64,000 bases of DNA from a bacterium (lineage in GTDB: Bacteria; Krumholzibacteriota; Krumholzibacteriia; Krumholzibacteriales; Krumholzibacteriaceae), in the NCBI GenBank assembly GCA_020350885.1, contig CP070727.1, forward strand, positions 3,732,738-3,796,737. The letters run 5' to 3'. This document shows positions 30,590 through 46,081 of the stretch, one piece after another. The notes under the pieces are model-generated. The model had not been told where the DNA came from and searched no databases. It worked only from the letters and a program-made list of their open reading frames with translations. Each line of letters begins with the position of its first letter. Positions within the stretch are counted from its first letter, which is position 1. The position numbers and the translations under genes are program-made.

Positions 30590-33500
30590 TTACAGCAGAC
30601 GCAGGATCTTGGTTGTTCCGACACCCTTACCGTCGATCATAACTCGCAGAAAATAGATGCCCGCTGCCGCCGGCCTCCCGGATCTGGTGCGGCCGTTCCA
30701 GCTGAACAAATGCCTGCCGGCGGGAAGATGCCCGTTGAAGATCGTACGCACGGTGCGTCCCGCCACATCATAGACGACCGCCTGAACGTTGTACCGCTCT
30801 GAGCCGCCTGCAGAGGGGGAACCGAGTATCATGGGTACCCGCACCATCGACCGGCTCGGGTTCGGGTAGGCGCTGAGTACCCTGACAACAGCCCTGAAAC
30901 CGTCTTCGGGAACATCGGTGGTCGAGGGTGGATCGGGCACGCCGTCATTGTCGGAATCCACAACGGCGACACAGAATGTATCGATGGCCGGTAACGTGGC
31001 TGCTACGTTGCTCGGTGTTGAGTCGCCGCCGAGCTCGCCGTCGGGCTCGGGATCCCAGCAAACGGAGGCAACGACACCGATCGATGTACCGACGGGAACC
31101 TGTCCCGGACCAAGACCGTAGAGCACATCCCAGGGAATCGCTAGCTCGCTCCCACCGTCATAACCGAAGATATGTTGCGGATCGAAGGCCATAAAGATCT
31201 GTGCACTCATGTTCTCGCTCGTGGTGTCACTCGTGAGATGCCACATCGACTGGGAATCGTACGGCCCCTGGTGCTGATAGGCGCCGTATTGATAATCGAC
31301 CTTGAATCCCGCCGCCGAGAATGTGGCACCCCGCTCCCATGTATCGATCGCCGTAAGGTCGGTATAGCCCTCTGGGCCGTCGACGTCGGTATCGAGATAG
31401 AGAATCCATGAATTCCCCTGCACGTGGCCGCGAATACCCAGGTAGAGGTAGGTCGAATCCCAGTCCACAAAGAGGACATTGATCTCGTTCGTATCCCCCG
31501 GTGCCGTGCCGTTCCATGATGAATCCCAGTAGTCCTCGCAGCTCACCCGTGGATCGGACCATTCCGAATCGGAAAGCCATCCGTCGATCTGGTATTTGGT
31601 CACTGGTGCTATTTCAACAGGTACATCGTCGGCATTCGTAACGGCCTCGTTTCCATTACCCGCATCATCCTGCACCGTGTTGGCCGCCAGCATGAGCTCG
31701 ATCGGCTCGGTCAGCGCCTCGATGGATGCGGCCGTGACTGCGCTCAGATCGAAGTTCAACCGCTTGTTGAATCCCGTGGTGGTGAGCGAATCGAGCACTG
31801 TTAAGCTCACGTCCGGGATACCGTCATCGTCGTCATCGAGCGAGATACCGGTCACTACGACCGTCGAGGCATCGATCTCTTCATCGAAGTACAGTACAAG
31901 ATGATCGGTCGCAGGGTAGTACGTACCGCTCAGTGGGCTCGGTCCCATCACATCGACGAGGCTGTCCCTCAGGGCCTTGAGCTCGGGGATATGCCCATCG
32001 ATATCCGTCGGACTCGTATAGCCGCCGTAGACCCAGACCTCGAAAGGACTGTCGCCGTAGAGTTCGTCCCCTTCGAGGAGTGTAGCGCTGAACTGGAAGT
32101 TGTGTGTTGCCCCCGCTGTGCCGACGATGATGGCGGCTGTTGCATCAGTATTCGTATTCTTCTGACCGAAGTAACCACCCCCATCGGGATCCCAGATGCG
32201 CTCGAGGGACTGTCCCGACCAGGTGAGGTCGAGGTTGTCGGGTGTAAAACCGCTCTTCACGTAGACACGCTCCCCCGAAGCCCTATACTGCACCTTGAGA
32301 TAAGGATAGCCGAGGGTCAGGGAAACGGTCTTCGTCACGCTCGGATGGACGATCTCGGCACCGACCGTGTTACCGACAGGATCGGTCACATTGAAGCTGT
32401 AGAAGTCGTTCTCCCGATCGATCCCCCCCACACTCACATCGCTGAGCGCGGCGACATGGTTCGTCTCGTTGTAATCGCCGTCGGTATCGACCCAATACAC
32501 GTTGTCGTTCGAGACGACGCTGTAGTTGTAGCCGGATCCCTTGCAGAAGAGCCACTGGAGCTTGCCGCCTATGCCATCGAAGACGGCAAGCAGGCGATCG
32601 TTGTAGAGAACGAGCTCGTCGACACCGTCATCGTCGAAATCCGATGTATAGGCGCCGGCGGGATCGACATAGAGGCCGCCTGCCCACCGGGCTGCCTCGG
32701 CATGGGCGTTCCCGCTTCGGATGTGATTGCTGTAATGGTGCTGCCAGCCGGAGATCTCGCCCCCGTCGTGCCAGCCGGTCTCATGCAGGTTGGTCATCAG
32801 CACGTACCAGGCCATTTCGCTTATGTTGTTGGCCGGCACACTAAGGATCTTGGTCAGGGTGAAGTCCCACTGGGTTCCGTAGTTCCACTTGGGGTCGTGG
32901 CCGTCGAGGTTCGAGTCCCCGGTGTATCCGGCCCAGTCGCCGTACCAGGAGTTGTTACCGCCGCCATAGCCGCCGTGCCCCCCCAGAAGACCGTAGGTGC
33001 CGTTCTGCAGTAACAAGGGCTGGGTTGTGAAACCGGGATCCTGGAGCACATCGGTCAGCTTCCATACGCCGACACTGCCACCGGCGTTCGCACACTGCTG
33101 GAGTACCCAGATATAGTTGTTCAGGGCATCGGGATTGCCCGCTCCCTGCGACACCTCTGCTGCGATCTCAGCATCGTTCCCGTAGATAATGATCTCATCC
33201 GAGGTTCCCGCCAGGATCGTGTTCCAGGCGTCACCCGCGTTCCAGTTCATCTGCCCGACGAAATCACCGTCCATCGGCAGAACCTTGATCGCGTTGTACG
33301 TGTAGATATGGTGATCGTCGAGCGGCCCGTTGTTGTACTCGCAGTGTATGTAGTCGTCGAGCAGCACCGCCCAGATGCCGTTATCGGTGAAGTCATCGCC
33401 TATGTAATCGATCACATTCGCCGAGGCGTCGGTGCCGTTCCCGTCGACATCAGGATTCTCACACCAGACGCGTTCGGGTACCCATGCCACACGCGGGGTG

Positions 33501-34636
33501 TAGCCGTAATGCGTTTGGATCATGTCGTTCTCCACAGAGACCGATTTGCCGTTTATCTCGTCACGGATAAACGGCATCATCTGCTGGCCCAATGCAGAAG
33601 AGATGATCTCGTACCGCCCGGCCGTGACGCCGGCGGCAAGCCAATCGTTGAATGCGGGGTCATGCCACTCTGCCGCTGAGATCAAGAGCCCCCCCTGGTG
33701 CCAGTTGAGCGGGAGGTTGTAGTAGTCGTGGGCGGCTAGAAGCTCGTCGGCGCCGTCATCGGGATTGTTTGGATCGCCGTCGTAGGCCGCCGCCTCACCC
33801 CGCTCGCCCCGGAAGACCGTTGTGTAGGTGAGCCCCTGGTTGAGATGGTGCATGAAGGCGACGTTGTGCGGGTTGGAAAGCATTTCGTTCGTGGCGGTGA
33901 TCTCATCGAGCACCCGTTGTCCGTCTGTCGTAAAGATATAAAAACCAATAGGGGTGTTGTCGTGTTCCGATACCGACGCTGCCACGGAACCGTATGCCTC
34001 GACCGTTGCGCCCGCCGCAGCGCATACCGCTTCCTTGAAGCCTCCGGGTAGCGTAATACTCGCCTCCAGGCAGGTCCACCGGTGCGAGCCGCGTGCATGC
34101 AGCACGGAAGCCCTCCCGCCCGGATACCTCCGCAGGGATGCATCGTCGGATGCCGCGACGGGAGCGACCCGGATGCGGGCCCGGATCCCGCCTCCATCGC
34201 CGTAGAGCTCAATCGCCCGATCCCACGCATGCGGCGGGGTGCCCGGAACACCGCCGGGAAGCTCCGCCGCCCCCCCATCCATGTAATCGAAGAGTACGAA
34301 TGCACGCACACCTTCACCGAGGAGCGGTGTATCCTCGGGTGTGCCCGGTGGCCGGTAAAGATTGATACGAACGGAAAGCCGGTCGACCCCCTGGTCGAAG
34401 TAGAATCCCATAAGATCGCCCAATCCATCTCTCCCACTGGCCCCGTCGTAGACCGGATCCAGTGCCTTCACACTCCCCCGATCCCACAGAGCGGGATCCC
34501 CTTCGAGTACCTCCCTTCCGGGCGATCTATCGACCGATGGATCCGGTCCGCCCGTCTGCGCACCGATTGATACGAGAAGTACGAAAAAGCTAAGGACGAT
34601 TACACTGAGGGTGGCCTTCCGCGGTAACGATTCCAT
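30590..34636 (-). CDS. Very large secreted GH57-related/glycoside-hydrolase-like multidomain protein with CBM9/DOMON-like module and T9SS C-terminal sorting domain
   Basis: 1348 aa; signal peptide; FMHHLNQ region reminiscent of GH57 N-terminal block; DWDSTYLYLGIRG module paralogous to that in 26802..29741; C-terminal YPNPSRS...AVVYDVAGRTV...GIYFLRV T9SS sorting domain. Confidence 0.55.
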   Translation of the reverse strand: MESLPRKATLSVIVLSFFVLLVSIGAQTGGPDPSVDRSPGREVLEGDPALWDRGSVKALDPVYDGASGRDGLGDLMGFYFDQGVDRLSVRINLYRPPGTPEDTPLLGEGVRAFVLFDYMDGGAAELPGGVPGTPPHAWDRAIELYGDGGGIRARIRVAPVAASDDASLRRYPGGRASVLHARGSHRWTCLEASITLPGGFKEAVCAAAGATVEAYGSVAASVSEHDNTPIGFYIFTTDGQRVLDEITATNEMLSNPHNVAFMHHLNQGLTYTTVFRGERGEAAAYDGDPNNPDDGADELLAAHDYYNLPLNWHQGGLLISAAEWHDPAFNDWLAAGVTAGRYEIISSALGQQMMPFIRDEINGKSVSVENDMIQTHYGYTPRVAWVPERVWCENPDVDGNGTDASANVIDYIGDDFTDNGIWAVLLDDYIHCEYNNGPLDDHHIYTYNAIKVLPMDGDFVGQMNWNAGDAWNTILAGTSDEIIIYGNDAEIAAEVSQGAGNPDALNNYIWVLQQCANAGGSVGVWKLTDVLQDPGFTTQPLLLQNGTYGLLGGHGGYGGGNNSWYGDWAGYTGDSNLDGHDPKWNYGTQWDFTLTKILSVPANNISEMAWYVLMTNLHETGWHDGGEISGWQHHYSNHIRSGNAHAEAARWAGGLYVDPAGAYTSDFDDDGVDELVLYNDRLLAVFDGIGGKLQWLFCKGSGYNYSVVSNDNVYWVDTDGDYNETNHVAALSDVSVGGIDRENDFYSFNVTDPVGNTVGAEIVHPSVTKTVSLTLGYPYLKVQYRASGERVYVKSGFTPDNLDLTWSGQSLERIWDPDGGGYFGQKNTNTDATAAIIVGTAGATHNFQFSATLLEGDELYGDSPFEVWVYGGYTSPTDIDGHIPELKALRDSLVDVMGPSPLSGTYYPATDHLVLYFDEEIDASTVVVTGISLDDDDDGIPDVSLTVLDSLTTTGFNKRLNFDLSAVTAASIEALTEPIELMLAANTVQDDAGNGNEAVTNADDVPVEIAPVTKYQIDGWLSDSEWSDPRVSCEDYWDSSWNGTAPGDTNEINVLFVDWDSTYLYLGIRGHVQGNSWILYLDTDVDGPEGYTDLTAIDTWERGATFSAAGFKVDYQYGAYQHQGPYDSQSMWHLTSDTTSENMSAQIFMAFDPQHIFGYDGGSELAIPWDVLYGLGPGQVPVGTSIGVVASVCWDPEPDGELGGDSTPSNVAATLPAIDTFCVAVVDSDNDGVPDPPSTTDVPEDGFRAVVRVLSAYPNPSRSMVRVPMILGSPSAGGSERYNVQAVVYDVAGRTVRTIFNGHLPAGRHLFSWNGRTRSGRPAAAGIYFLRVMIDGKGVGTTKILRLL

Positions 34637-35040: not shown

Positions 35041-37296
35041 ATGCTTCTGCGTAAGAATGTCGTTGTCATGCCGGTGTTTTGTGTGATGCTCCTCGCCGTC
35101 GCATCCTCGGGCATGTGGGCCCGCGATCCGCTCGACAAAGCGGCGGGAAAGGCGCATCAGAAACCTGAAAGGATCCGTGTCATTGACGGTAGCAACGTCC
35201 ACGATGTCGGCGAGCTCCAGGTGCACGTGGCCAACTGGGGACTATTCGGCTCGTTCCCATCTTCGAATTTTCCGTGCTCGCACGCCCCTTCCGCACAGTG
35301 GCCGGCCGGCAGCGGTATCGAGCACCTCTTCGGCGCCGGCCTCTGGGTCGGTGCGATAAAGAACGGGGTTCCCCACGTATCCACGTCACTCTTCGAGTTC
35401 GAGTTCATGCCCACGGATGATACGCTCGATGTGATCTACCGGACGTTCGAGGGGGCGCCGAACGGCGCCCGCATACCCTCTCCGTTCGCCGATGATGACG
35501 GTGACGGGGCGAGGGACGAGGACTTCCTCGACGGCCACGACAACGACGGTGACGGTCTCATCGATGAGGACTTCGCCGCCGTCTCGACGCAGATGTTCAG
35601 CTGCTGGTTCACCGACGACCAGCCGAATGCAACGGGCATCTACCCCGAGCACGAACCCCTCAATCTCCTTGTCAGGCAGGAGAGCTACCAGTGGGATGAT
35701 CCCCGCTTCGACGACTTTGTTGGAATTAAATTCACAATCACCAATACTGGCAACGTTCTGCTCGAGGATGTCCATCTGGGGTTCTTCGCGGACTGCGATG
35801 TCGGTCACCGAGATCGCCCGCAGTACTGGGAAGACGATGCCGAAGGGAGCTGGCGGGGAGCCCGCTGCACCGATATCGGACCCGCCCATCTGAATATCGG
35901 GTACTGTTACGATGCCGACGGGGACGAAGGCATGACAACGAGCTACTTCGGCGTTATGCTGCTCGGCCACACCATCGACCCGCTCGGTCTCCGGGCCCCG
36001 CGCCACGTCGAGCTCCATGCCTACCGGGTATTCAGCGGCACGCAACCCTACGAAAACGGTGGTGATCCCGTCAACGATTTCCAGCGATACGAAGTGCTCT
36101 CCACGTGGCGCATCGATGCAAACAGCCCCTCACCGAGGGACGTACGGTTCGTGATGAGCACGGGATCATTCCCGGAGCTCCCCCCCGGTGAGACGATCGT
36201 CATCCACATCGGACTCGTCGCCGGCGAGGGGCTCGAAGGCATGCTCGATAACGCCGCCTCGGCCCAGCGTCTCTTCGACGGCATCTGGTACGACTTCGAC
36301 GGTGACCCGGCGACAGGCATCGCCGGCAGGGAATCCCCCGTCTACGGTCCTGCACAGAACGTGTACATCGACGAATGCCGGCTGGATATCATCCAGCCCA
36401 TCGACGTCCCGGCAGGATCGGTCGTTTGGATCAACAACGACTGCCAGCGCGAGACGGAGCGTAAGCATATATGCTCATACGGCAGTGCCGACAGCCTCCT
36501 CTACCGGACCGGTGTCGCCGGCAGGGAAACACAGATCAACTGGTTTCTCGATGTCCCACCCCTTTCACTGCCCGTCCTGGACATCCGGCCGAGGCTGTGT
36601 CCGAATCCATTCCACCTGAAATGGATCTATGGCAACAGGGGAAGGAAACGGCCCTGGGGCGCCTTGATCCGCATTGCAATCCTCGGGATGGAGAACTTCG
36701 ACGTCAGGGATATCGACATCTCCTCACTGCGTCTCGAAGGTGTCGAGCCGCTGCGCTGGGGACGGCGCTACCGGGACGTCTCGAGGCCGGTTACCGGAAA
36801 AACCGGGTGCGAGTGTACGGCCGAGGGCCGCGACGGCTACCGCGACCTCATACTGCGATTCAGGGCCCGGGAGATCGGTGAGGCCCTGAGGGAGACGGGA
36901 CCTTTCGAGCCGGGCGATGAAAGGATGCTCACACTTACCGGCCTGCTCGAGGACGGGACGGCATTCACGGCCTCGGACTGTGTCGTATTCATTGGAAGAT
37001 GCCCACGGCCCGGGAGACCGGAGCCTCCGGAAGACAAGGACGAGCAGATACGGATATCACCGAATCCATTCAATCCGGTTACACGGATCACGTTCTATCT
37101 GGCGGAGCCCCGGCACGTCAGGATCTCCATCTACGATGTATCTGGACGGCTGATCGAACAACTTGCAGACGGGTGGCGGGAAGCGGGTGAACATACAATC
37201 GAATGGAGAGCGGGAGGTATCGCAAGCGGAATCTACTTCCTGCACATGGACGGAGGCACTATCTCCCAGACGCGCAAGATGATCCTATTGAGATGA
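35041..37296 (+). CDS. Secreted protein with acidic Ca-binding-like DxDGD repeats and T9SS C-terminal sorting domain, function unknown
   Basis: 751 aa; signal peptide; DDDGDGARDEDFLDGHDNDGDGLIDEDF; C-terminal ISPNPFNPVTRITFYL...ISIYDVSGRLI...GIYFLHM; GGAGGGAG RBS. Confidence 0.55.
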   Translation: MLLRKNVVVMPVFCVMLLAVASSGMWARDPLDKAAGKAHQKPERIRVIDGSNVHDVGELQVHVANWGLFGSFPSSNFPCSHAPSAQWPAGSGIEHLFGAGLWVGAIKNGVPHVSTSLFEFEFMPTDDTLDVIYRTFEGAPNGARIPSPFADDDGDGARDEDFLDGHDNDGDGLIDEDFAAVSTQMFSCWFTDDQPNATGIYPEHEPLNLLVRQESYQWDDPRFDDFVGIKFTITNTGNVLLEDVHLGFFADCDVGHRDRPQYWEDDAEGSWRGARCTDIGPAHLNIGYCYDADGDEGMTTSYFGVMLLGHTIDPLGLRAPRHVELHAYRVFSGTQPYENGGDPVNDFQRYEVLSTWRIDANSPSPRDVRFVMSTGSFPELPPGETIVIHIGLVAGEGLEGMLDNAASAQRLFDGIWYDFDGDPATGIAGRESPVYGPAQNVYIDECRLDIIQPIDVPAGSVVWINNDCQRETERKHICSYGSADSLLYRTGVAGRETQINWFLDVPPLSLPVLDIRPRLCPNPFHLKWIYGNRGRKRPWGALIRIAILGMENFDVRDIDISSLRLEGVEPLRWGRRYRDVSRPVTGKTGCECTAEGRDGYRDLILRFRAREIGEALRETGPFEPGDERMLTLTGLLEDGTAFTASDCVVFIGRCPRPGRPEPPEDKDEQIRISPNPFNPVTRITFYLAEPRHVRISIYDVSGRLIEQLADGWREAGEHTIEWRAGGIASGIYFLHMDGGTISQTRKMILLR

Positions 37297-37802: not shown

Positions 37803-38882
37803 CTACAACACGCCCCCGATGACGATCCCGTAGGCATCTTCGGAGTCGAATATAAACCAATGGGCCTGTGGATCGATCCGTGCATAATCGAGCTGCACCA
37901 TGATCCGCCCGAAGTCCCATCCAAGACCGATTCCGAAGGTATTGAAGCGTTCTCCCGGGAAGACCTCCTCGCACGCTCCAAAGCGTAGCTGCAGCATCTC
38001 GAGGATCGAAGCCTCCATGCCGAAGGCCCAGCCATCCTCATTGTTCGAGCCGGTGCCGCTCACGAGATCGAAATCGACCGAGACACCGAGGATCGCCACA
38101 CGGCGCCGCAGGGCATCGGTCAGCATCTCGTTCGACGGCGTGCCGAGATCGAGGCCGAAACCGACACGCTCCGCCCCCGGTTGCTCGGCGATGGAGCTGG
38201 CACCAAACTCGATACTTTCACCGAGATTCGAGACACTCGCACCCACGCGGGGACGCACGGTATAATCGCTCGACCGGAAGATATCGGCGGAGATAATAAC
38301 ACCGAGATCGAAGGCCCACAGCGAATAGTCCAAAACTGTGTTCGCATCGAGATACTTGGTCGTCACACCTACACCCATCTCCCATATCCCAGCCCTGAAT
38401 CCACCTGCACATGCACCGGAGACATAATAATCGGTATCATCTATCCCCTCCGCCTGACCCTCCGGAAGGTATATGGTTCTCATCCAGTCCACTTCCGCGG
38501 ACATCGTCGAATAGCCGATCGATCCCCCGACCATCCACCCTCCCTGATCTTCCCCCGACAGCCATCGGCGGCCTCCGGAAATGCGAGTATCGGTAAACGT
38601 CAGGTGAGAGCTCCAGTCGTTGATGCCGGTGCCGAGTGTTAACATCTGGCACCATGCGAAGCTCGCCGGATTGTAGTATCCCGTTGTAAATCCCATGATA
38701 TCCGAAGCCCCTGCGCCACCCATCCCAATGTTGCGTACACCCCGAGGGAAGAATGCGGCCGTCAGCACTCTCGTTTCTACCCGCTCAAACGGTGTCTGAG
38801 CTTGTACGGCGTGAGAGAAAAAAGCCAGAACCGCAGCACCGATAATGATACCTCTTCCTACATCTCGCCTATGGGATACCAT
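37803..38882 (-). CDS. Outer-membrane beta-barrel protein, PorV/PorQ-like (T9SS-associated) family candidate
   Basis: 359 aa; signal peptide; N-terminal GVRNIGMGGAGASD...YYNPASFA motif resembling PorV/PorQ-type N-terminal signature; aromatic C-terminus. Confidence 0.4.
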   Translation of the reverse strand: MVSHRRDVGRGIIIGAAVLAFFSHAVQAQTPFERVETRVLTAAFFPRGVRNIGMGGAGASDIMGFTTGYYNPASFAWCQMLTLGTGINDWSSHLTFTDTRISGGRRWLSGEDQGGWMVGGSIGYSTMSAEVDWMRTIYLPEGQAEGIDDTDYYVSGACAGGFRAGIWEMGVGVTTKYLDANTVLDYSLWAFDLGVIISADIFRSSDYTVRPRVGASVSNLGESIEFGASSIAEQPGAERVGFGLDLGTPSNEMLTDALRRRVAILGVSVDFDLVSGTGSNNEDGWAFGMEASILEMLQLRFGACEEVFPGERFNTFGIGLGWDFGRIMVQLDYARIDPQAHWFIFDSEDAYGIVIGGVL

Positions 38883-39022
38883 ATTGTTTTTCCTCCCCGG
38901 TTAGATCAACCAAACAAAGCCCCGACATCTCCCCTATATAGTATAATAATATATATTATACACAATTTTGCATAAGATGCAGTATAAATATCAGTTAAGC
39001 TGCATTTGAATAAAAATTTTCC

Positions 39023-39051
39023 TTGACCTCAAAAACGGTTACTTCTATAAT
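39023..39051 (+). promoter_or_regulatory. Near-consensus sigma70-type promoter TTGACC-N17-TATAAT upstream of precursor-peptide ORF
   Basis: TTGACC 39023-39028, 17-nt spacer, TATAAT 39046-39051; AT-rich UP-like region upstream (38930-39020). Confidence 0.5.
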
Positions 39052-39138
39052 GCGATCCGCAACTTAGGGACGATACAATCAAGTAAATCTGGTGTGCCCT
39101 TTGATACCTAATCATGTCATGGGGGGAGGTGAATAGGT

Positions 39139-39270
39139 ATGGTATTCGAATATGAAGACACCATGGCAGGCGATCTCGGAGGAGCAATTACCGCAACATT
39201 GTGCAGGATAGGTTTCACACCTGTTTGCGGAGGTTCATCACCTGAGACCATCTCCGGTTGCGTTACCTAA
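39139..39270 (+). CDS. Candidate RiPP precursor peptide (lanthipeptide-like), 43 aa: MVFEYEDTMAGDLGGAITATLCRIGFTPVCGGSSPETISGCVT
   Basis: Not in ORF track (<60 aa). GGGAGGTG RBS 7 nt upstream of ATG; in-frame TGA immediately upstream; acidic leader with GG motif followed by a 28-aa core with 3 Cys and 7 Ser/Thr; first ORF of an operon encoding kinase and LanC-like proteins. Confidence 0.55.
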   Translation: MVFEYEDTMAGDLGGAITATLCRIGFTPVCGGSSPETISGCVT

Positions 39271-39304
39271 TGGGTCGACCGTAAAGAATCATTAGATACA
39301 CAAA

Positions 39305-39323
39305 GAGCACAGTGCTCGTTTTG
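39305..39323 (+). terminator. Weak hairpin + U-tract (GAGCA-CAG-UGCUC-GUUUUGU), possible partial terminator/attenuator after precursor gene
   Basis: 5-bp stem, 3-nt loop followed by T-rich run, 35 nt downstream of the precursor stop codon. Confidence 0.25.
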
Positions 39324-39420
39324 TAACTACTCGTACCAACTCCTGATTTTGAGTGTAGCCAGGGGGCACGTCAGATACGGGGATGGTGGTAGAGGTCTGC
39401 CGTTCTTACCGGGATTCTCC

Positions 39421-39448
39421 TTGCTACTCAAAGTTCCTTCCATATAAT
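39421..39448 (+). promoter_or_regulatory. Possible internal promoter TTGCTA-N16-TATAAT upstream of modification-enzyme genes
   Basis: TTGCTA 39421-39426, TATAAT 39443-39448; about 40 nt upstream of the ATG at 39487 with GAGGA RBS. Confidence 0.3.
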
Positions 39449-39486
39449 TCTCTGAAACCGGATTGAAATATCACTCGAGGACAAGA

Positions 39487-40689
39487 ATGCTCGACAAGAC
39501 ATTTCGCTTGAATCCCGTCTTCTCGATAACACCGATCGAAGAGCTGACGGAGGAGCAGCGGAGGAACTTCCGGCGTATCCTTTCGGGTAAGGGTATTTAC
39601 AGTCTGCTCCATGCCCCCAGAGAAGCGAATTTCACGGTGAAGGCCTTGAACCGTCCCCTCTCCGACTTCCTCGAAGATCTACGGGAGCCAACCGTACTGA
39701 CGGACCTTCTGGAGAAATTTGGAGAAGAATCCGATAAGGATGTGCAGCAGCTCATCACACGTTTTCTCCTGGATGGTGTCCTGGAGGTTCGTACACGCGG
39801 AGGTTTTGTAAGCGGCATAGAGGCCCTCAATTCGCTGCTGTCCCTCTCGGAACCGGTACCCGTCCCGGCGGATGCCGACGATTCGAACTACATCCGCAGG
39901 ATCTCCAGCGCGGCGCTCGATATCGCCATGAAGAGCACCTACAAACATACCCGTGATATCGCCTGGATCCTGTATAATTTCAACCGCATGCCGATGAACC
40001 GGGCCCGCCGCCGGCAACTGCCGGATGAGGAAGCAGTGCTCGACTTTCTCGGCCTGGACGGGGATGGCTGCTGGACCGGGATGCCCGATACGATACGGCC
40101 GGTACCTCCGGAGACTGATGAAGACGGTAATTTTACGCCGTTCTTCCAGGTCTGGAGATCATGGACGATCAGCCCAAAGCGAGGGAAAAAAAACGAACTG
40201 GGGTATAAGGTGTATGTAAGTGCCCTACCCGATGAAACACCCGAGGTATTCAAGATAGTGAGGGAACATATCGCCGATGCCGGGGCCAGCTCGATGAAGA
40301 TCGGAAGGGTGGGTTCCGCCATGCTACGCTGCGACAAACTCCTGGTGTATTTCAAGAGCATCGAGACGGCCATGGAGTTTGGTAGGGAAATCGCCAAATT
40401 GACCACCGCGTTTCATGGACAGGGCGTCCCGTTCACGTATCCCCTGGAACCGGAGAACCGCCTGATCAGTATCGGTGTCGATCCGCCCGGAAAGTTCAGC
40501 ATCGTGAATAGTTGGCGCCGCTATGTGACCGATAAACTCGCCGTTGCCATTCAGGGTGCCCACAGGGAGAGAGCGCAGGATCCGCTGGGCTACATTCGCA
40601 CAAATATGAGATTATTTGGCGTTGATATCGATGAATGGCGCCCCGCAAGCAGAGACTGGACCATGGAATTCGACCTCGATACCGAATAA
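39487..40689 (+). CDS. Unknown 401-aa protein, candidate stand-alone phospho-Ser/Thr lyase (OspF/SpvC/HopA1-like) of a split lanthionine synthetase
   Basis: Start MLDKTF with GAGGA RBS (ORF track starts 39463); C-terminal half contains GYKVYVSALPDE resembling the SpvC/OspF catalytic GDKFHISV Lys motif; gene order (this - kinase - LanC) mirrors domain order lyase-kinase-cyclase of class III/IV lanthipeptide synthetases. Functional call is inference. Confidence 0.4.
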   Translation: MLDKTFRLNPVFSITPIEELTEEQRRNFRRILSGKGIYSLLHAPREANFTVKALNRPLSDFLEDLREPTVLTDLLEKFGEESDKDVQQLITRFLLDGVLEVRTRGGFVSGIEALNSLLSLSEPVPVPADADDSNYIRRISSAALDIAMKSTYKHTRDIAWILYNFNRMPMNRARRRQLPDEEAVLDFLGLDGDGCWTGMPDTIRPVPPETDEDGNFTPFFQVWRSWTISPKRGKKNELGYKVYVSALPDETPEVFKIVREHIADAGASSMKIGRVGSAMLRCDKLLVYFKSIETAMEFGREIAKLTTAFHGQGVPFTYPLEPENRLISIGVDPPGKFSIVNSWRRYVTDKLAVAIQGAHRERAQDPLGYIRTNMRLFGVDIDEWRPASRDWTMEFDLDTE

Positions 40690-40693
40690 GCTG

Positions 40694-41938
40694 ATGTCAG
40701 AAAAGAAAAAGAAGCATAACCGGCGCATCTGGCGCTTATCCTCCGATGTCGTAATACGCCCGGTGACGGAGATGCCGGAGGAGGCAATCGAACAGATAAC
40801 ACAGAACAAAAGGAATCCGGAGAACTACTTCGGAATCGAACGGAAGAAATCACGAGCACAAGCCAAGATCGTCAACAAGGACGTCATAGATGTACTGAGG
40901 GCTTTCGGGGATGAGGGCAAGACCTACGATGAGGTGCTCGAATACTTTCTCGAACTCAAGGGACTCGAGCGGGATGAGCTGCACCCGGCAATGTCTAAGA
41001 TGGTAAATACCTTCATTGGCAGCAATTTTCTGGTCGAGGGAAGGAGATACGACAAGGACACTTCCGAATCCGTCGAGCCCAGCTTCCAGGATGGTGACAG
41101 GTGGCTCTCATACAGGATACTCAAGAATGTCCACGTTATTATCGACACCGAGATCTACCAGGTGGAACATATTCCCTCCGGCGTAACGAGGGCCTTGAAG
41201 ATCACTCAACCCACGTTTCCGCGAGAGAAGATGAAGAAGAAGATATTCAAGCGGCTCGAGCACGAATTCAAAACCATTCAAAAGATCAAACATCCTAATA
41301 TCATCAAGGTCCACGATTACGGAATGCACGAAGGGCGTATGTACGGGATCCTCGACTGGGTGGATGGAAGATCGGTATACTCGCACGCCTACGATTCGGG
41401 CACTCCCCCGCATGATGGCCTGCTGCTCGAACTGTCGATCGAGTGTCTCGAGGCGCTCGGTGCCGTTCACAGGGCACGGTACCTCCATGGCGACGTTCAC
41501 ACGAGAAACTTCCTCATAAAGAACGGTCATGTCTGCCTTATCGATTTCGGTCTCTCACGCCCCATAAAGGTCAGAAAGGCGGAGGAGCGCAGGTACGTCG
41601 AGGGCGGGGTTATACGATTCATGCCGCCGGAGTATGTGCAGTACAAGCTCGAGGAAAAGAAGGGGTTATGGGGGAGTATCGCCGGTGAGATATACTCGGT
41701 GGGAGTAATGATCTTCTCGCTTTTCACCAGCACATACCCGTACAAGTGGTCGTTCTATCGCAAGGATTTTATGGAACATATTCTAAACGACCCGCCTCCG
41801 AGTTTCGAGGAGTGCGAACGCGACCCCTGGCCGGAACTCGAAGCCGTACTGCACAAGGCCCTGGAAAAGGATCCGAAAGACCGGTTTGCCAGCGTGGACG
41901 AATTCAGCCGGGCATTACAAAAACTCTCCGTCCCCTAA
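40694..41938 (+). CDS. Ser/Thr protein kinase (Hanks-type) with ~190-aa N-terminal extension; candidate lanthipeptide kinase component
   Basis: ATG 5 nt after upstream stop (translational coupling); kinase subdomains: RALKI (VAIK), HPNIIKV, HGDVHTRNFLI (HRDxxxxN), DFGLS, PPEY (APE), DPKDRF. Confidence 0.75.
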   Translation: MSEKKKKHNRRIWRLSSDVVIRPVTEMPEEAIEQITQNKRNPENYFGIERKKSRAQAKIVNKDVIDVLRAFGDEGKTYDEVLEYFLELKGLERDELHPAMSKMVNTFIGSNFLVEGRRYDKDTSESVEPSFQDGDRWLSYRILKNVHVIIDTEIYQVEHIPSGVTRALKITQPTFPREKMKKKIFKRLEHEFKTIQKIKHPNIIKVHDYGMHEGRMYGILDWVDGRSVYSHAYDSGTPPHDGLLLELSIECLEALGAVHRARYLHGDVHTRNFLIKNGHVCLIDFGLSRPIKVRKAEERRYVEGGVIRFMPPEYVQYKLEEKKGLWGSIAGEIYSVGVMIFSLFTSTYPYKWSFYRKDFMEHILNDPPPSFEECERDPWPELEAVLHKALEKDPKDRFASVDEFSRALQKLSVP

Positions 41939-42001: not shown

Positions 42002-43132
42002 ATGAACGCAACAGCCTGGCAGGAGAAAGCCCTGAAGGGTCTCAAGAAGCTGTCCGATTGCCGATTCGAGAGCTTCAATATGATACACGGCCCGCCGTAC
42101 CGCTCGCTGAACAACGGAGCTACAGGCATCGCATATACATTCTGGAAGGCCGCCAATGTCCTGGATGATCCCGAATGGCTTCATCACGCACGCCTCTGGA
42201 TAGACCATACCGTGGCCCTGCCCGAGGATGACCGCATCGTCGGCCTTCCGGAGGATGAAGGGGATTCGGCCGAAATAGAGATCGAGGACTCGCTCTATCA
42301 TGGTAACAGAGGTCTTCAGTTTGTGAAGATGCTTGTGGCGTATGCACAGGCGGACGATTACAACGCCAACAAGTTTTTACGGCAATTCGAAAAGCCGACA
42401 GCCAGGAGATCGGAGGCTCAGGAGCTTCTCCAGGGCGTCCCGGGCCGGTTGGTGGGCTTTGCGATTCTCTACGAAGAGACGGGGTACGATTATATAAAGG
42501 AAAAGGGCGACGAGGTCACCGAGGAGCTGCTGGGGACGGCGGATCTATCCATGAAGGATACCCTCTGGGGCAACAACCGGTATCTGGGCATCGCCCACGG
42601 GCGCGCCGGCATACTCTATTCTCTTCTTTTCTGGTCGAGGGCTTCCGGATACGTTCTACCGGACCGTATACATGAAGAGGTTACAAAGCATGCTGCATTC
42701 GGGATAGAGCAGGAACACGGGCTCAGATGGCCCATACAGGAGCACAAGGAGGATAGGTTCATGGATAGCTGGTGTCACGGCACCCCCGGACAGCTCCATC
42801 TGTGCTCCCTCGCCTACGAGCTCTACAAGGAGCCGCTTTTCCTGAAAACTGCACGCGGCGCCGGGGAATCTATCATTCACATCAAGGGATATCCACTTGG
42901 GCACCTGTGCTGCGGGTCAGCCGGTGCAAGCTACGCACTCCTCTCCCTTAATCGGATAGATCCCGGCGGGCCATGGCTGGACCATGCCATCAGGTTCGCC
43001 GAGATGAGCGAGAAAGCCCAGTTGATAACGCGGTTCAGGCTCGGTCTGTATACCGGATTGGCCGGCGTTGTATGCCTGATGCTCGATATGACAAATGTGG
43101 CCGAAGCGCGGCAACCGGGATTTCAGGGCTGA
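42002..43132 (+). CDS. LanC-like lanthionine cyclase domain protein
   Basis: 376 aa; LanC signature blocks: NGATGIAY, LYHGNRG, IAHGRAGILY (GxAHG), SWCHGTPG (WCxG), HLCCGSAG (position of CHG block, here C-C-G). Confidence 0.7.
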   Translation: MNATAWQEKALKGLKKLSDCRFESFNMIHGPPYRSLNNGATGIAYTFWKAANVLDDPEWLHHARLWIDHTVALPEDDRIVGLPEDEGDSAEIEIEDSLYHGNRGLQFVKMLVAYAQADDYNANKFLRQFEKPTARRSEAQELLQGVPGRLVGFAILYEETGYDYIKEKGDEVTEELLGTADLSMKDTLWGNNRYLGIAHGRAGILYSLLFWSRASGYVLPDRIHEEVTKHAAFGIEQEHGLRWPIQEHKEDRFMDSWCHGTPGQLHLCSLAYELYKEPLFLKTARGAGESIIHIKGYPLGHLCCGSAGASYALLSLNRIDPGGPWLDHAIRFAEMSEKAQLITRFRLGLYTGLAGVVCLMLDMTNVAEARQPGFQG

Positions 43133-43171: not shown

Positions 43172-44236
43172 CTACCTGGATAGACCATCCATTATCAATC
43201 GATAGAGCCGGACTTCCGGCTTTACTACTATCTCGGTCCTACCCGTCAAACCGTATTTGAGGAAGGTCCGGTCGCCGTTCTCCTCTTCCACCCAGGGTTC
43301 CTCTATCGCTATTTCGACCTCGAATGTGGATTGACCACGTGAGACCATCGGGACCGATGCAATCCTGCCCACCCTTCCCTCGAAGACCTTGTACTCCCTA
43401 TGGGGATAACTATTCAAGAATATCTTCGCGTCCTGGCCCCGCTGTACATCCGTGATATCGGTTTCACCGATATCGGCAGAAAAGATCACCGTATCAAAGA
43501 ATCCGATCTCCATAACCGGCTTCCCCTTGCCGACCATGGTACCTACCAGGTTCTCCGGTGCAGCGGTCAGTACGGTCCCTTCCCCTGGTGCCAGTACAAC
43601 GGTCTCATCCAGCTTCTTCTTCGAAAGTGCGAAGGAGCTTTCCGCCAGCTCGAGGTTTCTGCGCTTTTCCTCTATCTGCCGTTCGAGCTGCTTCTTGAGA
43701 ATCTGGTTTCTGGACTTGAGAATCTCGTAGTATGACTTGCTCGACTCGTAGCCGAGTTTCGCCCTCTCGTACTCCTCGGCGTTGACCAATTCCTTATCGA
43801 AGAGCTTTGTTACCCGCTCGAGGTTCTCCTCGTTGAACTTCATTCGTTGCTCTGCTTCGTTGAGATCGGCCAGTATCATGCCGAGCTCGTATGACTTGCT
43901 CGTCGTCAGATTCCTGTATTCATCTTCCGCTCTCCTGAGCTCGGAACGGGCATTTGCCAGTATATTCCCCGCGCGCTTAACCTCCAGCTCGATCTCTTCA
44001 GAATAAATGGTGAAAAGGGTGTCGTTTCTCGCAACCTTTTCTCCCTCAATGACAAAGACTTCTTCGACTATGCCGTTGATTCTCGGCGCGACACCGACCT
44101 GCCGTCCCGGCGAGACCATGCCAAAACCTTCGACGGTCTCATCCATCTTGCCGAAGTAGAGAACGGCGGCGGCACAAATGAGGATCGAGATCGCAATATA
44201 GAAGGCAAATGCGAATACTTTCGTTACCCGTTTCAT
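43172..44236 (-). CDS. HlyD-family membrane fusion protein (secretion/efflux adaptor)
   Basis: 354 aa; N-terminal TM anchor, long coiled-coil (heptad EE/KR-rich 100-200), beta-barrel/lipoyl-like C-terminal region; downstream of ABC exporter gene. Confidence 0.75.
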   Translation of the reverse strand: MKRVTKVFAFAFYIAISILICAAAVLYFGKMDETVEGFGMVSPGRQVGVAPRINGIVEEVFVIEGEKVARNDTLFTIYSEEIELEVKRAGNILANARSELRRAEDEYRNLTTSKSYELGMILADLNEAEQRMKFNEENLERVTKLFDKELVNAEEYERAKLGYESSKSYYEILKSRNQILKKQLERQIEEKRRNLELAESSFALSKKKLDETVVLAPGEGTVLTAAPENLVGTMVGKGKPVMEIGFFDTVIFSADIGETDITDVQRGQDAKIFLNSYPHREYKVFEGRVGRIASVPMVSRGQSTFEVEIAIEEPWVEEENGDRTFLKYGLTGRTEIVVKPEVRLYRLIMDGLSR

Positions 44237-44281: not shown

Positions 44282-46081
44282 CTACCGGTTCTGCGACTTC
44301 CTCGTCTTCGTTATCCTCGACTCACTTTCACGTGTCATTTGATCCCACAACATCCTGTATATCCCGCCCCGGTTCATGAGATCTTCATGGATACCTACCT
44401 CGGCGAACCGCCCCTCATACAGGACATAAATTGCATCCGCATCAATAATGGAAGTTAATCTGTGGGCCACGATGATTGTGGTTTTCTTCTCCATGAGTGG
44501 TTCCAGGGCCCTGTGAATAAATAATTCCGATTTCGTATCCAGTGAGGACATCGCCTCATCGAGAATCAGAATCTCCGGATCCTTCAGTATCGTTCTTGCT
44601 ATCGAGATCCTCTGACACTGGCCGCCCGAGAGCCGCAGGCCCCTTTCCCCCACTACGGTGTCGTAACCGTCGGGAAGGCTCGTTATGAAGCCATGGATAT
44701 CAGCCTTCCTGGCGGCCTCCAGGATCTCGTCCTTCGTGGCCCTCCTGTTACCATACATGATGTTCTCTCGTATCGTCGTATTGAACAGGATGGTTTCCTG
44801 TGATACCAGACCAATGTGCTGCCGCAGGGAATGCAGCTTGATCTCCCGCAGATCTGTGCCGTCAATTAGAACCCGACCCGATGTCGGATCGTGGAACCTG
44901 CTTATGAGATCGACGATCGTGCTCTTTCCAACGCCGCTCGGACCAACGACGGCGACCCTCTGCCCGGGATCGATATGCATGGAAACATCGATCAGAACAG
45001 GCTCGTCGGGGTTATAAGAGAAATGAACCTTTTCGAAATCGATTTCACCCCTCACCCTCTCGATTCTCCTGCTGCCGGGAATATCAACGATCATCGGCTG
45101 GACATCGAAGAACTCGAAGATCCTGTCGATCGCCGCACGTGCCGTCTGGATCGAAACATTGTACTGCGCAAGCCTGAAGATCGGCCTGAAGAGCCTGCCC
45201 ACGTATGCATAGAAGGCGACGAAGCTGCCCAGGGACAGGGCACCCGCCATGACCTGGCGGGCCCCGTATACAAGTACGATTACAGGACCGAGTGTGGATA
45301 GGAAGACGGCGATCGATGCCGACACCGCTCCCAGTACACCCAGGGTTATTCTCAGATTTATGAGTTCCTTGCTCTTTCGTAACAGACGTATCGCTTCGAA
45401 TCTCTCCTTGACGAAGGACTGGATGAGCTTGATGGACGAGAAGGTTTCCTGGAAAAAACTTACTATCTCTGCCGATTTATCGCGGGTCTCCCTGCTCTTC
45501 TTCTTTATCTTGCGCCCCAGGTAAAACTGGGTGATGAACAGGGCAGGGAAGATCACCATCGACAACAGAGCCAGCTTCCAGTTGAGGAACAGCATGATAA
45601 CAATGATGATGGCAATTGATGCGATATCGGTCACGAGGGCTATCAGTGTTGTGGTGAGAACATCCTGCACTCTCGATACATCGTTGTTGACCCGCGTAAT
45701 GATTTCACCTGTCTTGGTCTCGGTAAAAAATCCTATGTGAAGATGCTCCAGGTGCCTGAAAAGGTCGAATCTTATGTTGAAGAGGATCCTCTGACCTACA
45801 TACTGTATCAGGTAGTTTATGACCACCCTCATTCCACATCTCAGAAGAAAGAGCGCTATCAGGGCGATGACGATTACATTTAAAAGAGGTATGTTCCTGT
45901 CGATTATCACGTCGTCGATCACTATCTTCATTGCAAGCGGATCGAGCAGGGATAGCCCGGCGACGATCATCATCAGGAAGGCAATGCCCAGCTCCAAACC
46001 GAGAAACGGTTTGATGTACCTGATGATTCTCTTCGACGATTTCTTCGGAGCATTTTCTCTATCTGATTTCATACAAACCAC
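44282..46081 (-). CDS. ABC exporter, fused TMD-NBD (type I exporter, MsbA/peptide-exporter-like); no N-terminal C39 peptidase domain
   Basis: 599 aa; six TM helices then Walker A GPSGVGKST, Q-loop, signature LSGGQCQR, Walker B ILILDEAMSSLD, H-loop. Confidence 0.85.
   Translation of the reverse strand: MVCMKSDRENAPKKSSKRIIRYIKPFLGLELGIAFLMMIVAGLSLLDPLAMKIVIDDVIIDRNIPLLNVIVIALIALFLLRCGMRVVINYLIQYVGQRILFNIRFDLFRHLEHLHIGFFTETKTGEIITRVNNDVSRVQDVLTTTLIALVTDIASIAIIIVIMLFLNWKLALLSMVIFPALFITQFYLGRKIKKKSRETRDKSAEIVSFFQETFSSIKLIQSFVKERFEAIRLLRKSKELINLRITLGVLGAVSASIAVFLSTLGPVIVLVYGARQVMAGALSLGSFVAFYAYVGRLFRPIFRLAQYNVSIQTARAAIDRIFEFFDVQPMIVDIPGSRRIERVRGEIDFEKVHFSYNPDEPVLIDVSMHIDPGQRVAVVGPSGVGKSTIVDLISRFHDPTSGRVLIDGTDLREIKLHSLRQHIGLVSQETILFNTTIRENIMYGNRRATKDEILEAARKADIHGFITSLPDGYDTVVGERGLRLSGGQCQRISIARTILKDPEILILDEAMSSLDTKSELFIHRALEPLMEKKTTIIVAHRLTSIIDADAIYVLYEGRFAEVGIHEDLMNRGGIYRMLWDQMTRESESRITKTRKSQNR

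Follow-up and report, generated by a model that had tools for sequence, protein, structure and literature searches.

The window considered here is the whole stretch of DNA that was analysed, 64,000 nucleotides in length, and all coordinates refer to it unless another locus is named. At 39139..39270 on the forward strand lies a 43-codon open reading frame with an ATG start, interpreted as a precursor peptide gene from the ORF listing, its translation and its orthologues; MVFEYEDTMAGDLGGAITATLCRIGFTPVCGGSSPETISGCVT is its exact translation. The initial annotation had described this ORF with the same start and length and with an in-frame stop upstream, and both are present, the stop being the TGA at 39130-39132, two codons 5' of the ATG. 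It is followed on the same strand by genes for a predicted stand-alone phospho-Ser/Thr lyase of 400 aa (39487..40689, from fold and motif alignment), a stand-alone Hanks-type Ser/Thr kinase of 414 aa (40694..41938, with a Pkinase match) and a stand-alone LanC-type cyclase of 376 aa (42002..43132). On the reverse strand follow an HlyD-type membrane-fusion (periplasmic adaptor) protein (43172..44236) and an ABC exporter consisting of permease plus ATPase (44282..46081). The kinase and LanC-like genes had been expected downstream of the small ORF and are indeed found there, the latter with a LANC_like match (PF05147, E 2.8e-36), but the lyase gene between ORF and kinase had been missed.

The short ORF carries a clear signature of coding. 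Between the window ORF and one orthologue the nucleotide differences at codon positions 1/2/3 number 4/4/27, and five more orthologues give 4/5/21, 6/3/20, 6/5/18, 9/6/23 and 8/6/22. This bias towards the third codon position, seen against six orthologues, places 39139-39270 far beyond a chance ORF. In most orthologue pairs there are two to three times as many synonymous as non-synonymous codon changes, identity is 0.70-0.77 over the ORF versus approximately 0.60-0.66 over the intergenic flanks, and a 45-aa paralogue in locus L001 differs by a two-codon insertion, that is, by an indel of whole codons. On the strength of these comparisons the 43-codon ORF is a genuine conserved gene under purifying selection on its reading frame. 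Two 43-aa proteins matching the window peptide at 84% identity were recovered in a search of 5.8 billion proteins, and orthologous 43-aa ORFs are annotated as genes in other assemblies; the exact window peptide is missing from the protein collection, while the adjacent kinase is present there. Pfam and NCBIfam scans returned no family for the window peptide or for seven distant precursors.

Conservation extends to gene order. Some ten assemblies, independent of one another, have the peptide gene 5' of this operon, often as two to four tandem copies (two each in L001, L005, L007 and L086, four in L089), and the order peptide, lyase, kinase, LanC is found again in L001-L007 and L086-L089, so that the search for homologous short ORFs beside LanC and kinase genes, proposed in the initial annotation, did yield syntenic orthologues. 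A second peptide copy in the window was not detected by tblastn, and the window therefore has one copy. The outer neighbours differ and the flanking contexts of the conserved peptide-enzyme unit are unrelated between loci; L005 and L087, in particular, have other upstream neighbours, which delimits the conserved unit to the peptide gene and the enzyme genes. Among named organisms, the cluster has its closest relatives in Latescibacteria-like and Ignavibacteria MAGs.

Within the peptide, we propose residues 1-15, MVFEYEDTMAGDLGG, as the leader and residues 16-43, AITATLCRIGFTPVCGGSSPETISGCVT, as the core. The core was said to hold three Cys and seven Ser/Thr; the three Cys are there, but the Ser/Thr count in the 28-aa core is eight. 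Its composition is largely maintained among orthologues: all three Cys are retained in nine of the ten closest orthologues, Cys41 being lost in one of the L089 copies, and Thr18, Thr20, Thr27, Ser33, Ser34, Thr37 and Ser39 are largely retained, with Thr replaced by Ser in two cases. The best conserved ring candidate is the G-x-T-x-x-C unit from T27 to C30. Around the proposed boundary only one Gly, directly before A-I-T, is usually conserved. The window leader reads M-V-F-E-Y-x-D-T-M and matches the leader motif of the wider family, described below, at M1, F3, E4, Y5, D7, T8 and M9. With about 15 aa this leader is unusually short, which counts against its explanation as part of a lanthipeptide precursor. 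Precursors of the window's clade have 43-54 aa and do not possess the long C-terminal helical tail of most family precursors; given this missing tail, leader recognition in the window clade may differ.

The signals for expression of the peptide gene are well developed. A sigma-70-type promoter, TTGACC-N17-TATAAT at 39023..39051 (forward strand), agrees with the consensus at 11 of 12 positions in the promoter scan, as had been claimed, and the end of its -10 box lies 87 nt before the precursor ATG; in an alignment the TATAAT box and its spacing are likewise found at the orthologous place in L005. Promoter-like sites in the scanned region numbered four, versus 1.2 expected. The ribosome-binding site claimed for the ORF is present as GGAGG at 39125-39129, 9 nt 5' of the ATG, within a Shine-Dalgarno sequence GGAGGTG (39125..39131, forward strand) that overlaps the in-frame TGA, and in this region GGAGGTGA is invariant across the aligned orthologous loci. 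A second promoter-like site, TTGCTA-N16-TATAAT at 39421..39448 of the same strand (10 of 12 matches), is found 38 nt before the lyase start and suggests that the enzymes could be transcribed independently of the precursor. Between the two genes, 3' of the precursor gene, the forward strand has a weak terminator-like hairpin, GAGCACAGTGCTC followed by GTTTTG (39305..39317). Terminator-like sites in the region are not more numerous than expected by chance, and we suggest with low confidence that this hairpin may attenuate read-through.

The precursor gene is moreover enclosed by a long-range RNA stem, with its 5' arm at 39087..39103 pairing with its 3' arm at 39360..39376 (both forward strand). 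Across loci the two arms lie approximately 37-50 nt before the ATG and 90-105 nt past the stop, respectively. The pairing is present in both the MFE and the centroid fold, and the duplex energy in the window is -29.1 kcal/mol (z -4.3). Corresponding arm pairs with identical offsets exist in L001 (~1603/1872; -38.1 kcal/mol) and L005 (~4688/4955; -39.9 kcal/mol), and equivalent arms, as sequences only, in L086 (~292/554 and ~230) and L087 (~2185/2451). Across loci the stem ranges from -29 to -40 kcal/mol with z from -4.3 to -5.3, and pairing is preserved despite sequence change, by means of G.U pairs and compensatory differences. An inverted repeat around the precursor gene was not seen in L007, L009, L010, L088 and L089, and Rfam gave no match within 38700-39600. 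The stem may be an RNase III or transcript-stabilising element, which may define or stabilise a separate precursor transcript.

In the lyase protein an N-terminal domain of about 100-200 aa precedes the lyase domain proper, which spans residues ~205 to 400. It has no Pfam or NCBIfam family, the closest approach being a sub-threshold match to RamC_N (E 0.005), and Pfam gave no sequence match to PF17914 at E<=0.01. Its assignment is based on structure: an AlphaFold2 model built on 35 homologues has a mean pLDDT of 85, and all 31 Foldseek matches with E below 0.05 are phospho-Ser/Thr lyases, of which LxmY and HopA1 are the best and closer than SpvC. In a profile of the C-terminal half, fKlYvS is aligned with WKIHIS of a LanKC. 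The aligned segment is that of the K-x-H motif, which provides phosphate binding and the acid in ThurKC (K65, H67) and SpvC (K104, H106) (PMC10604976). Residues K241, Y243, K271, R281, Y288, D332 and R344 are invariant or nearly so in the lyase family, and judging by their spacing they probably correspond to K104, H106, K136, R148, Y158, D201 and R213 of SpvC. Tyr243 stands in place of the general-acid His of SpvC and LanKC, and we assume that the protein would be active as a lyase despite this replacement. A PADLOC scan gave nothing for lyase or LanC and generic similarity only for the kinase.

The kinase had been thought to begin at 40616; this is not borne out, as the protein starts at the ATG 40694 and its 414 aa are identical to the NCBI MAG protein P0040. 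Its catalytic residues are invariant in the family and its fold is canonical. The start codon follows the lyase stop by 4 nt (40689/40694), a gap indicative of an operon. The first ~100 residues of lyase and kinase are homologous to each other (hhalign probability 83.5%, E 8.4e-6, 92 columns) and their secondary-structure elements occur in the same order. This duplicated N-terminal domain probably serves to dock the leader.

Kinase and LanC are separate ORFs in the window (41938/42002). The cyclase aligns with LANCL1 and LANCL2 through AHGxAG, WCHG and L-C-C-G, which locates the catalytic His199 and the zinc ligands Cys258, Cys303 and Cys304 (CCG motif); all four residues are invariant in 74 of 74 family members and form a Cys3 zinc site. 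By sequence, LANCL2, GCR2 and LANCL1 are the closest solved structures. Among NCBIfam models the LanM model TIGR03897 scores highest (75.8 bits), with LanL second. In one MAG contig (L003/L006, 3995-5124) the LanC gene was called as two pieces of 226 and 142 aa, due to either a frameshift or an assembly error; the cluster is otherwise intact.

The two divergent export genes are conserved in L001 and L007. A C39 peptidase domain was not found in the ABC exporter, in which ABC_membrane begins at residue 33 of 598, nor was a protease or C39 domain for leader removal present among the scanned neighbours, a point against the interpretation as a lanthipeptide system. Upstream of the precursor gene are large FlgD_ig/T9SS-sorting-domain proteins and a PorV/PorQ-like outer-membrane protein (26802-29741, 30590-34636, 35041-37296 and 37803-38882), from which it follows that the host is a T9SS-bearing (FCB-group-like) bacterium; two of the T9SS-sorting-domain proteins also have weak GH57 matches. 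In L088 a MacB/FtsX-type ABC transporter pair (515-2351), which is absent from the window, is located 5' of the precursor and may represent an immunity or export accessory.

Homologues of the lyase are widespread. A scan with one genome per GTDB species retrieved 196 relatives of the protein, and a profile search against 1.84 billion representatives retrieved 1,574 clusters (1,095 at E<=1e-30), all of approximately 380-420 aa; these ~1,570 family clusters are counted at 50% identity. The hosts comprise Acidobacteriota, Gemmatimonadota, Burkholderiaceae, Chloroflexota, Actinomycetota, Bacillus, Bacteroidota, Elusimicrobia and Nitrososphaerales archaea. In essentially every related locus the lyase gene is followed by kinase and LanC, and in a frame-aware check 67 of 72 complete related loci have the latter two fused into a protein of about 800 aa, with the lyase separate (for example L011 9198-11621 and L082 9143-11527). 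This prevalence of the fusion ties the functions of kinase and LanC together. The enzymes are encoded by three separate genes in the window's clade only, namely in the window, in L001 and L007, which both have close orthologues of the peptide, and in the more distant L009, and additionally in L088; L019 and L032 look like frameshifts.

Upstream ORFs of the distant loci begin with M-x-F-[KDE]-[VIY]-K-[DE]-[LT]-M-[IV], and the leader motif common to precursors across phyla is M-x-F-[KDE]-x-K-[DE]-L-M. In 60 of 86 loci, from many phyla, at least one upstream ORF outscored all reversed-sequence decoys with a leader HMM, the best decoy reaching 4.7 bits against the refined HMM; the window peptide scores 23.3 bits with the first seed HMM, to whose construction it had contributed. 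The motif-bearing precursors have a median of 135 aa and 7 Cys (up to 30), and are present in two copies in 15 loci. Most precursors of the family measure 60-250 aa, and the long ones end in a charged, helix-like tail. Putative precursors of 200-250 aa, as in L015 (7137-7892), L016 (1612-2253), L020 (7264-7926), L026 (7284-7976), L031 (7330-7980) and L066 (7237-7971), display C-T-x-x or C-G-C-T repeats in series, contain as many as 30 Cys and end in a helix-rich charged tail; in sequence they look like small proteins more than like classical RiPP precursors. The archaeal loci are in Nitrososphaerales MAGs (L059 7217-7954, L070 1862-2599), and in one archaeal ORF of 245 aa the leader motif occurs two times (MSFKIRDLMITL... 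and ...KAFRIRDLMITIL...), as though a tandem fusion of two precursors had taken place.

Among the known lanthipeptide classes the enzyme set is most readily compared with class IV. Like LanL (e.g., VenL, SgbL), it combines a Hanks-type kinase (PF00069) with a phospho-Ser/Thr lyase and a LanC-type cyclase that depends on zinc. LanL, however, is one polypeptide with the order lyase, kinase, cyclase, whereas in the loci related to the window the lyase is always separate and the window's clade has kinase and cyclase on separate proteins as well (likewise in L001, L007, L009 and L088). The zinc triad is Cys-Cys-His in LanL and Cys-Cys-Cys in the window family, the lyase fold is nearer to HopA1 and LxmY than to SpvC, and both lyase and kinase have an extra N-terminal domain, unlike LanL. 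Against the cut-off of 650 bits of the LanL model NF038150, the window kinase scores 33.7 and the window LanC 69.2 bits; for the fused kinase-LanC proteins LanL is the best NCBIfam match, with 123-165 bits over model positions ~190-809 only, which cover the kinase-cyclase part of the model and not its lyase part. The enzymes would appear to work like those of class IV, yet they do so without its defining single-polypeptide feature and score below the curated model.

The other classes agree in fewer respects. Classes III and IV are both single lyase-kinase-cyclase polypeptides, of which the cyclase zinc site is absent in III and present in IV, and class VI, which has been described from Streptococcus alone, is a single truncated enzyme (PMC9486802, PMC10604976, PMC8341899, PMC10676316, PMC11186320). 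The class III LanKC enzymes (ThurKC, CurKC) have a cyclase without zinc ligands, whereas those of the window family are invariant, and the class III leader motif VxxLQ (PMC11251773) is absent from the window system. Class V (lexapeptide, cacaoidin) relies on an APH-type LanK (PF01636) and a HopA1-type LanY, with LanX, also of the APH family, implicated in cyclisation; its clusters have no homologues of class I-IV lanthionine synthases, and its characterised members are often without a known cyclase (PMC9486802, PMC10604976, PMC11186320). The window system resembles class V in its separate proteins and in its lyase fold (LxmY, HopA1), but its lyase has no sequence match to PF17914, the family of LanY, its kinase is a canonical Hanks kinase rather than of the APH type and a zinc LanC is encoded at 42002-43132. 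We reject an assignment to class I or class II, as a scan of 16 flanking proteins gave no match to LanB or to LanM (DUF4135). Walker et al. (PMC7268733) require LanC and kinase on one protein, and by their rules the window cluster would be "unclassified". Partial precedents exist. A computational study proposed archaeal lanthipeptide-like clusters with kinase and BLES03-like phosphothreonine lyase as separate proteins beside small C/T/S-rich ORFs (PMC4159009); the lyase is of another family, and the quoted text mentions no LanC in these neighbourhoods and neither the leader motif nor the shared N-terminal domain of the present family. A computational note of an "L-CCC" cyclase group is likewise a partial precedent (PMC11251773). 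We found no description of a lyase, kinase and LanC architecture with the present features in the open-access literature, and an earlier account elsewhere is possible.

We interpret 39139-39270 as the gene of a LanA-type precursor of a lanthipeptide-like RiPP, which would be modified by lyase, kinase and LanC and then exported, and assign this interpretation a probability of roughly three in four. The original proposal of a RiPP or lanthipeptide precursor serving the adjacent kinase and LanC is thereby upheld by the selection on the reading frame, the synteny, the tandem copies, the conservation of Cys, Ser and Thr, the enzyme set and the export genes. Transcription of the precursor gene would start at its own strong promoter and translation at the first ATG, and the motif M-V-F-E-Y-x-D-T-M in the N-terminal ~15 residues would be read by the ~100-aa domain on lyase and kinase. 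The Hanks-type kinase would then phosphorylate Ser/Thr of the 28-residue core, the HopA1/LxmY-like lyase would eliminate the phosphate to yield Dha/Dhb, and LanC with its Cys3 zinc site would add Cys22, Cys30 and Cys41 to these residues. Three (methyl)lanthionine rings would be the likely outcome, from T18 or T20 to C22, from T27 to C30, and from S33, S34, T37 or S39 to C41. The divergent ABC/HlyD pair would export the product.

It is conceivable, if unlikely, that the peptide is the true substrate and that the product is another one, such as a labionin-type carbacycle at S34-x2-T37-x3-C41, a peptide with dehydro residues and free Cys, or a metal-binding Cys peptide. Up to 30 Cys in family precursors elsewhere, which is unusual for lantibiotics, is in line with such an alternative, and so is the spacing S34-P-E-T37-I-S-G-C41, which fits the class III pattern S-x2-S-x2-5-C (PMC8341899) with Thr in the second place. 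Labionins, however, have been found only in class III lanthipeptides, whose LanKC cyclase domains have no zinc site (PMC8341899, PMC9486802), whereas His and Cys3 are invariant here, and the close orthologues have a conserved Ser/Thr N-terminal to each core Cys. We consider it improbable that the main substrates of kinase, lyase and LanC are other cellular proteins, with the small ORF being a regulator or an unrelated small protein. A mode of action of this kind has been proposed for the eukaryotic LanCL enzymes; among solved structures the window LanC is closest in sequence to LANCL2, GCR2 and LANCL1, and most family "precursors" are small proteins of 60-250 aa rather than short peptides. Against it, the peptide genes are always directly 5' on the same strand, are tandem-duplicated and have an N-terminal motif in common across phyla, and export genes follow the enzymes in the window's clade.

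Two further explanations are very improbable in our view. According to one, the peptide would belong to a class II-style bacteriocin or lanthipeptide system, its double-glycine leader being cleaved by an ABC transporter with a peptidase domain. The initial annotation had indeed described a double-glycine leader ending in DLGG, which occurs in the window peptide and in copy 1 of L086, and an ABC/HlyD pair is adjacent; but the orthologues read DLEG, DLAG, DIAG, DLEI, TLEG or SIEG, so that GG is replaced by EG, AG, EI and others, the ABC protein has no Peptidase_C39 and no LanM (DUF4135) is nearby. With GG not conserved and no C39 domain in the exporter, we reject this double-glycine/C39 model. 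There is equally little to be said for the ORF being due to chance, or being an upstream ORF that lies in the 5' leader of the enzyme operon without serving as a substrate. Its shortness and the conserved RNA stem spanning the region would agree with this, but not the third-codon-position bias, the amino-acid conservation, the whole-codon indel in the 45-aa copy of L001, the conserved Shine-Dalgarno site and the recurrence of the leader motif across phyla.

Returning to the lanthipeptide-like precursor, we tentatively advance a broader reading, to which we give somewhat less than an even chance: the window may present the most fragmented form of a large new type of lanthionine synthetase, in effect a new lanthipeptide class, with the 43-aa peptide as a miniaturised, exported version of its substrates. 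Possible hallmarks of this type, proposed just as tentatively, are the trans-acting HopA1/LxmY-like lyase, the Hanks kinase, the Cys3-zinc LanC, the shared docking domain and the leader motif. The substrates of most lineages (Acidobacteriota, Gemmatimonadota, Chloroflexota, Bacillus, Nitrososphaerales) could then, with the same reservation, be the proteins of 60-250 aa that have a coiled-coil-like tail and contain as many as 30 Cys.

If the prediction proves correct, lanthionine formation by kinase, lyase and LanC extends beyond the fused LanKC/LanL enzymes and the LanC-free class V, and a modular version of two or three proteins exists in ~1,570 lyase clusters from bacterial phyla and archaea. 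Genome mining based on classes would miss or misfile such clusters, in which lyase and precursors have no Pfam or NCBIfam model. For engineering, the system would further provide a leader motif that is new and a domain that is a candidate for leader binding; its separate enzymes would be easy to study singly, and it would give access to products of poorly cultured phyla, including those of unusually long, Cys-rich precursors.
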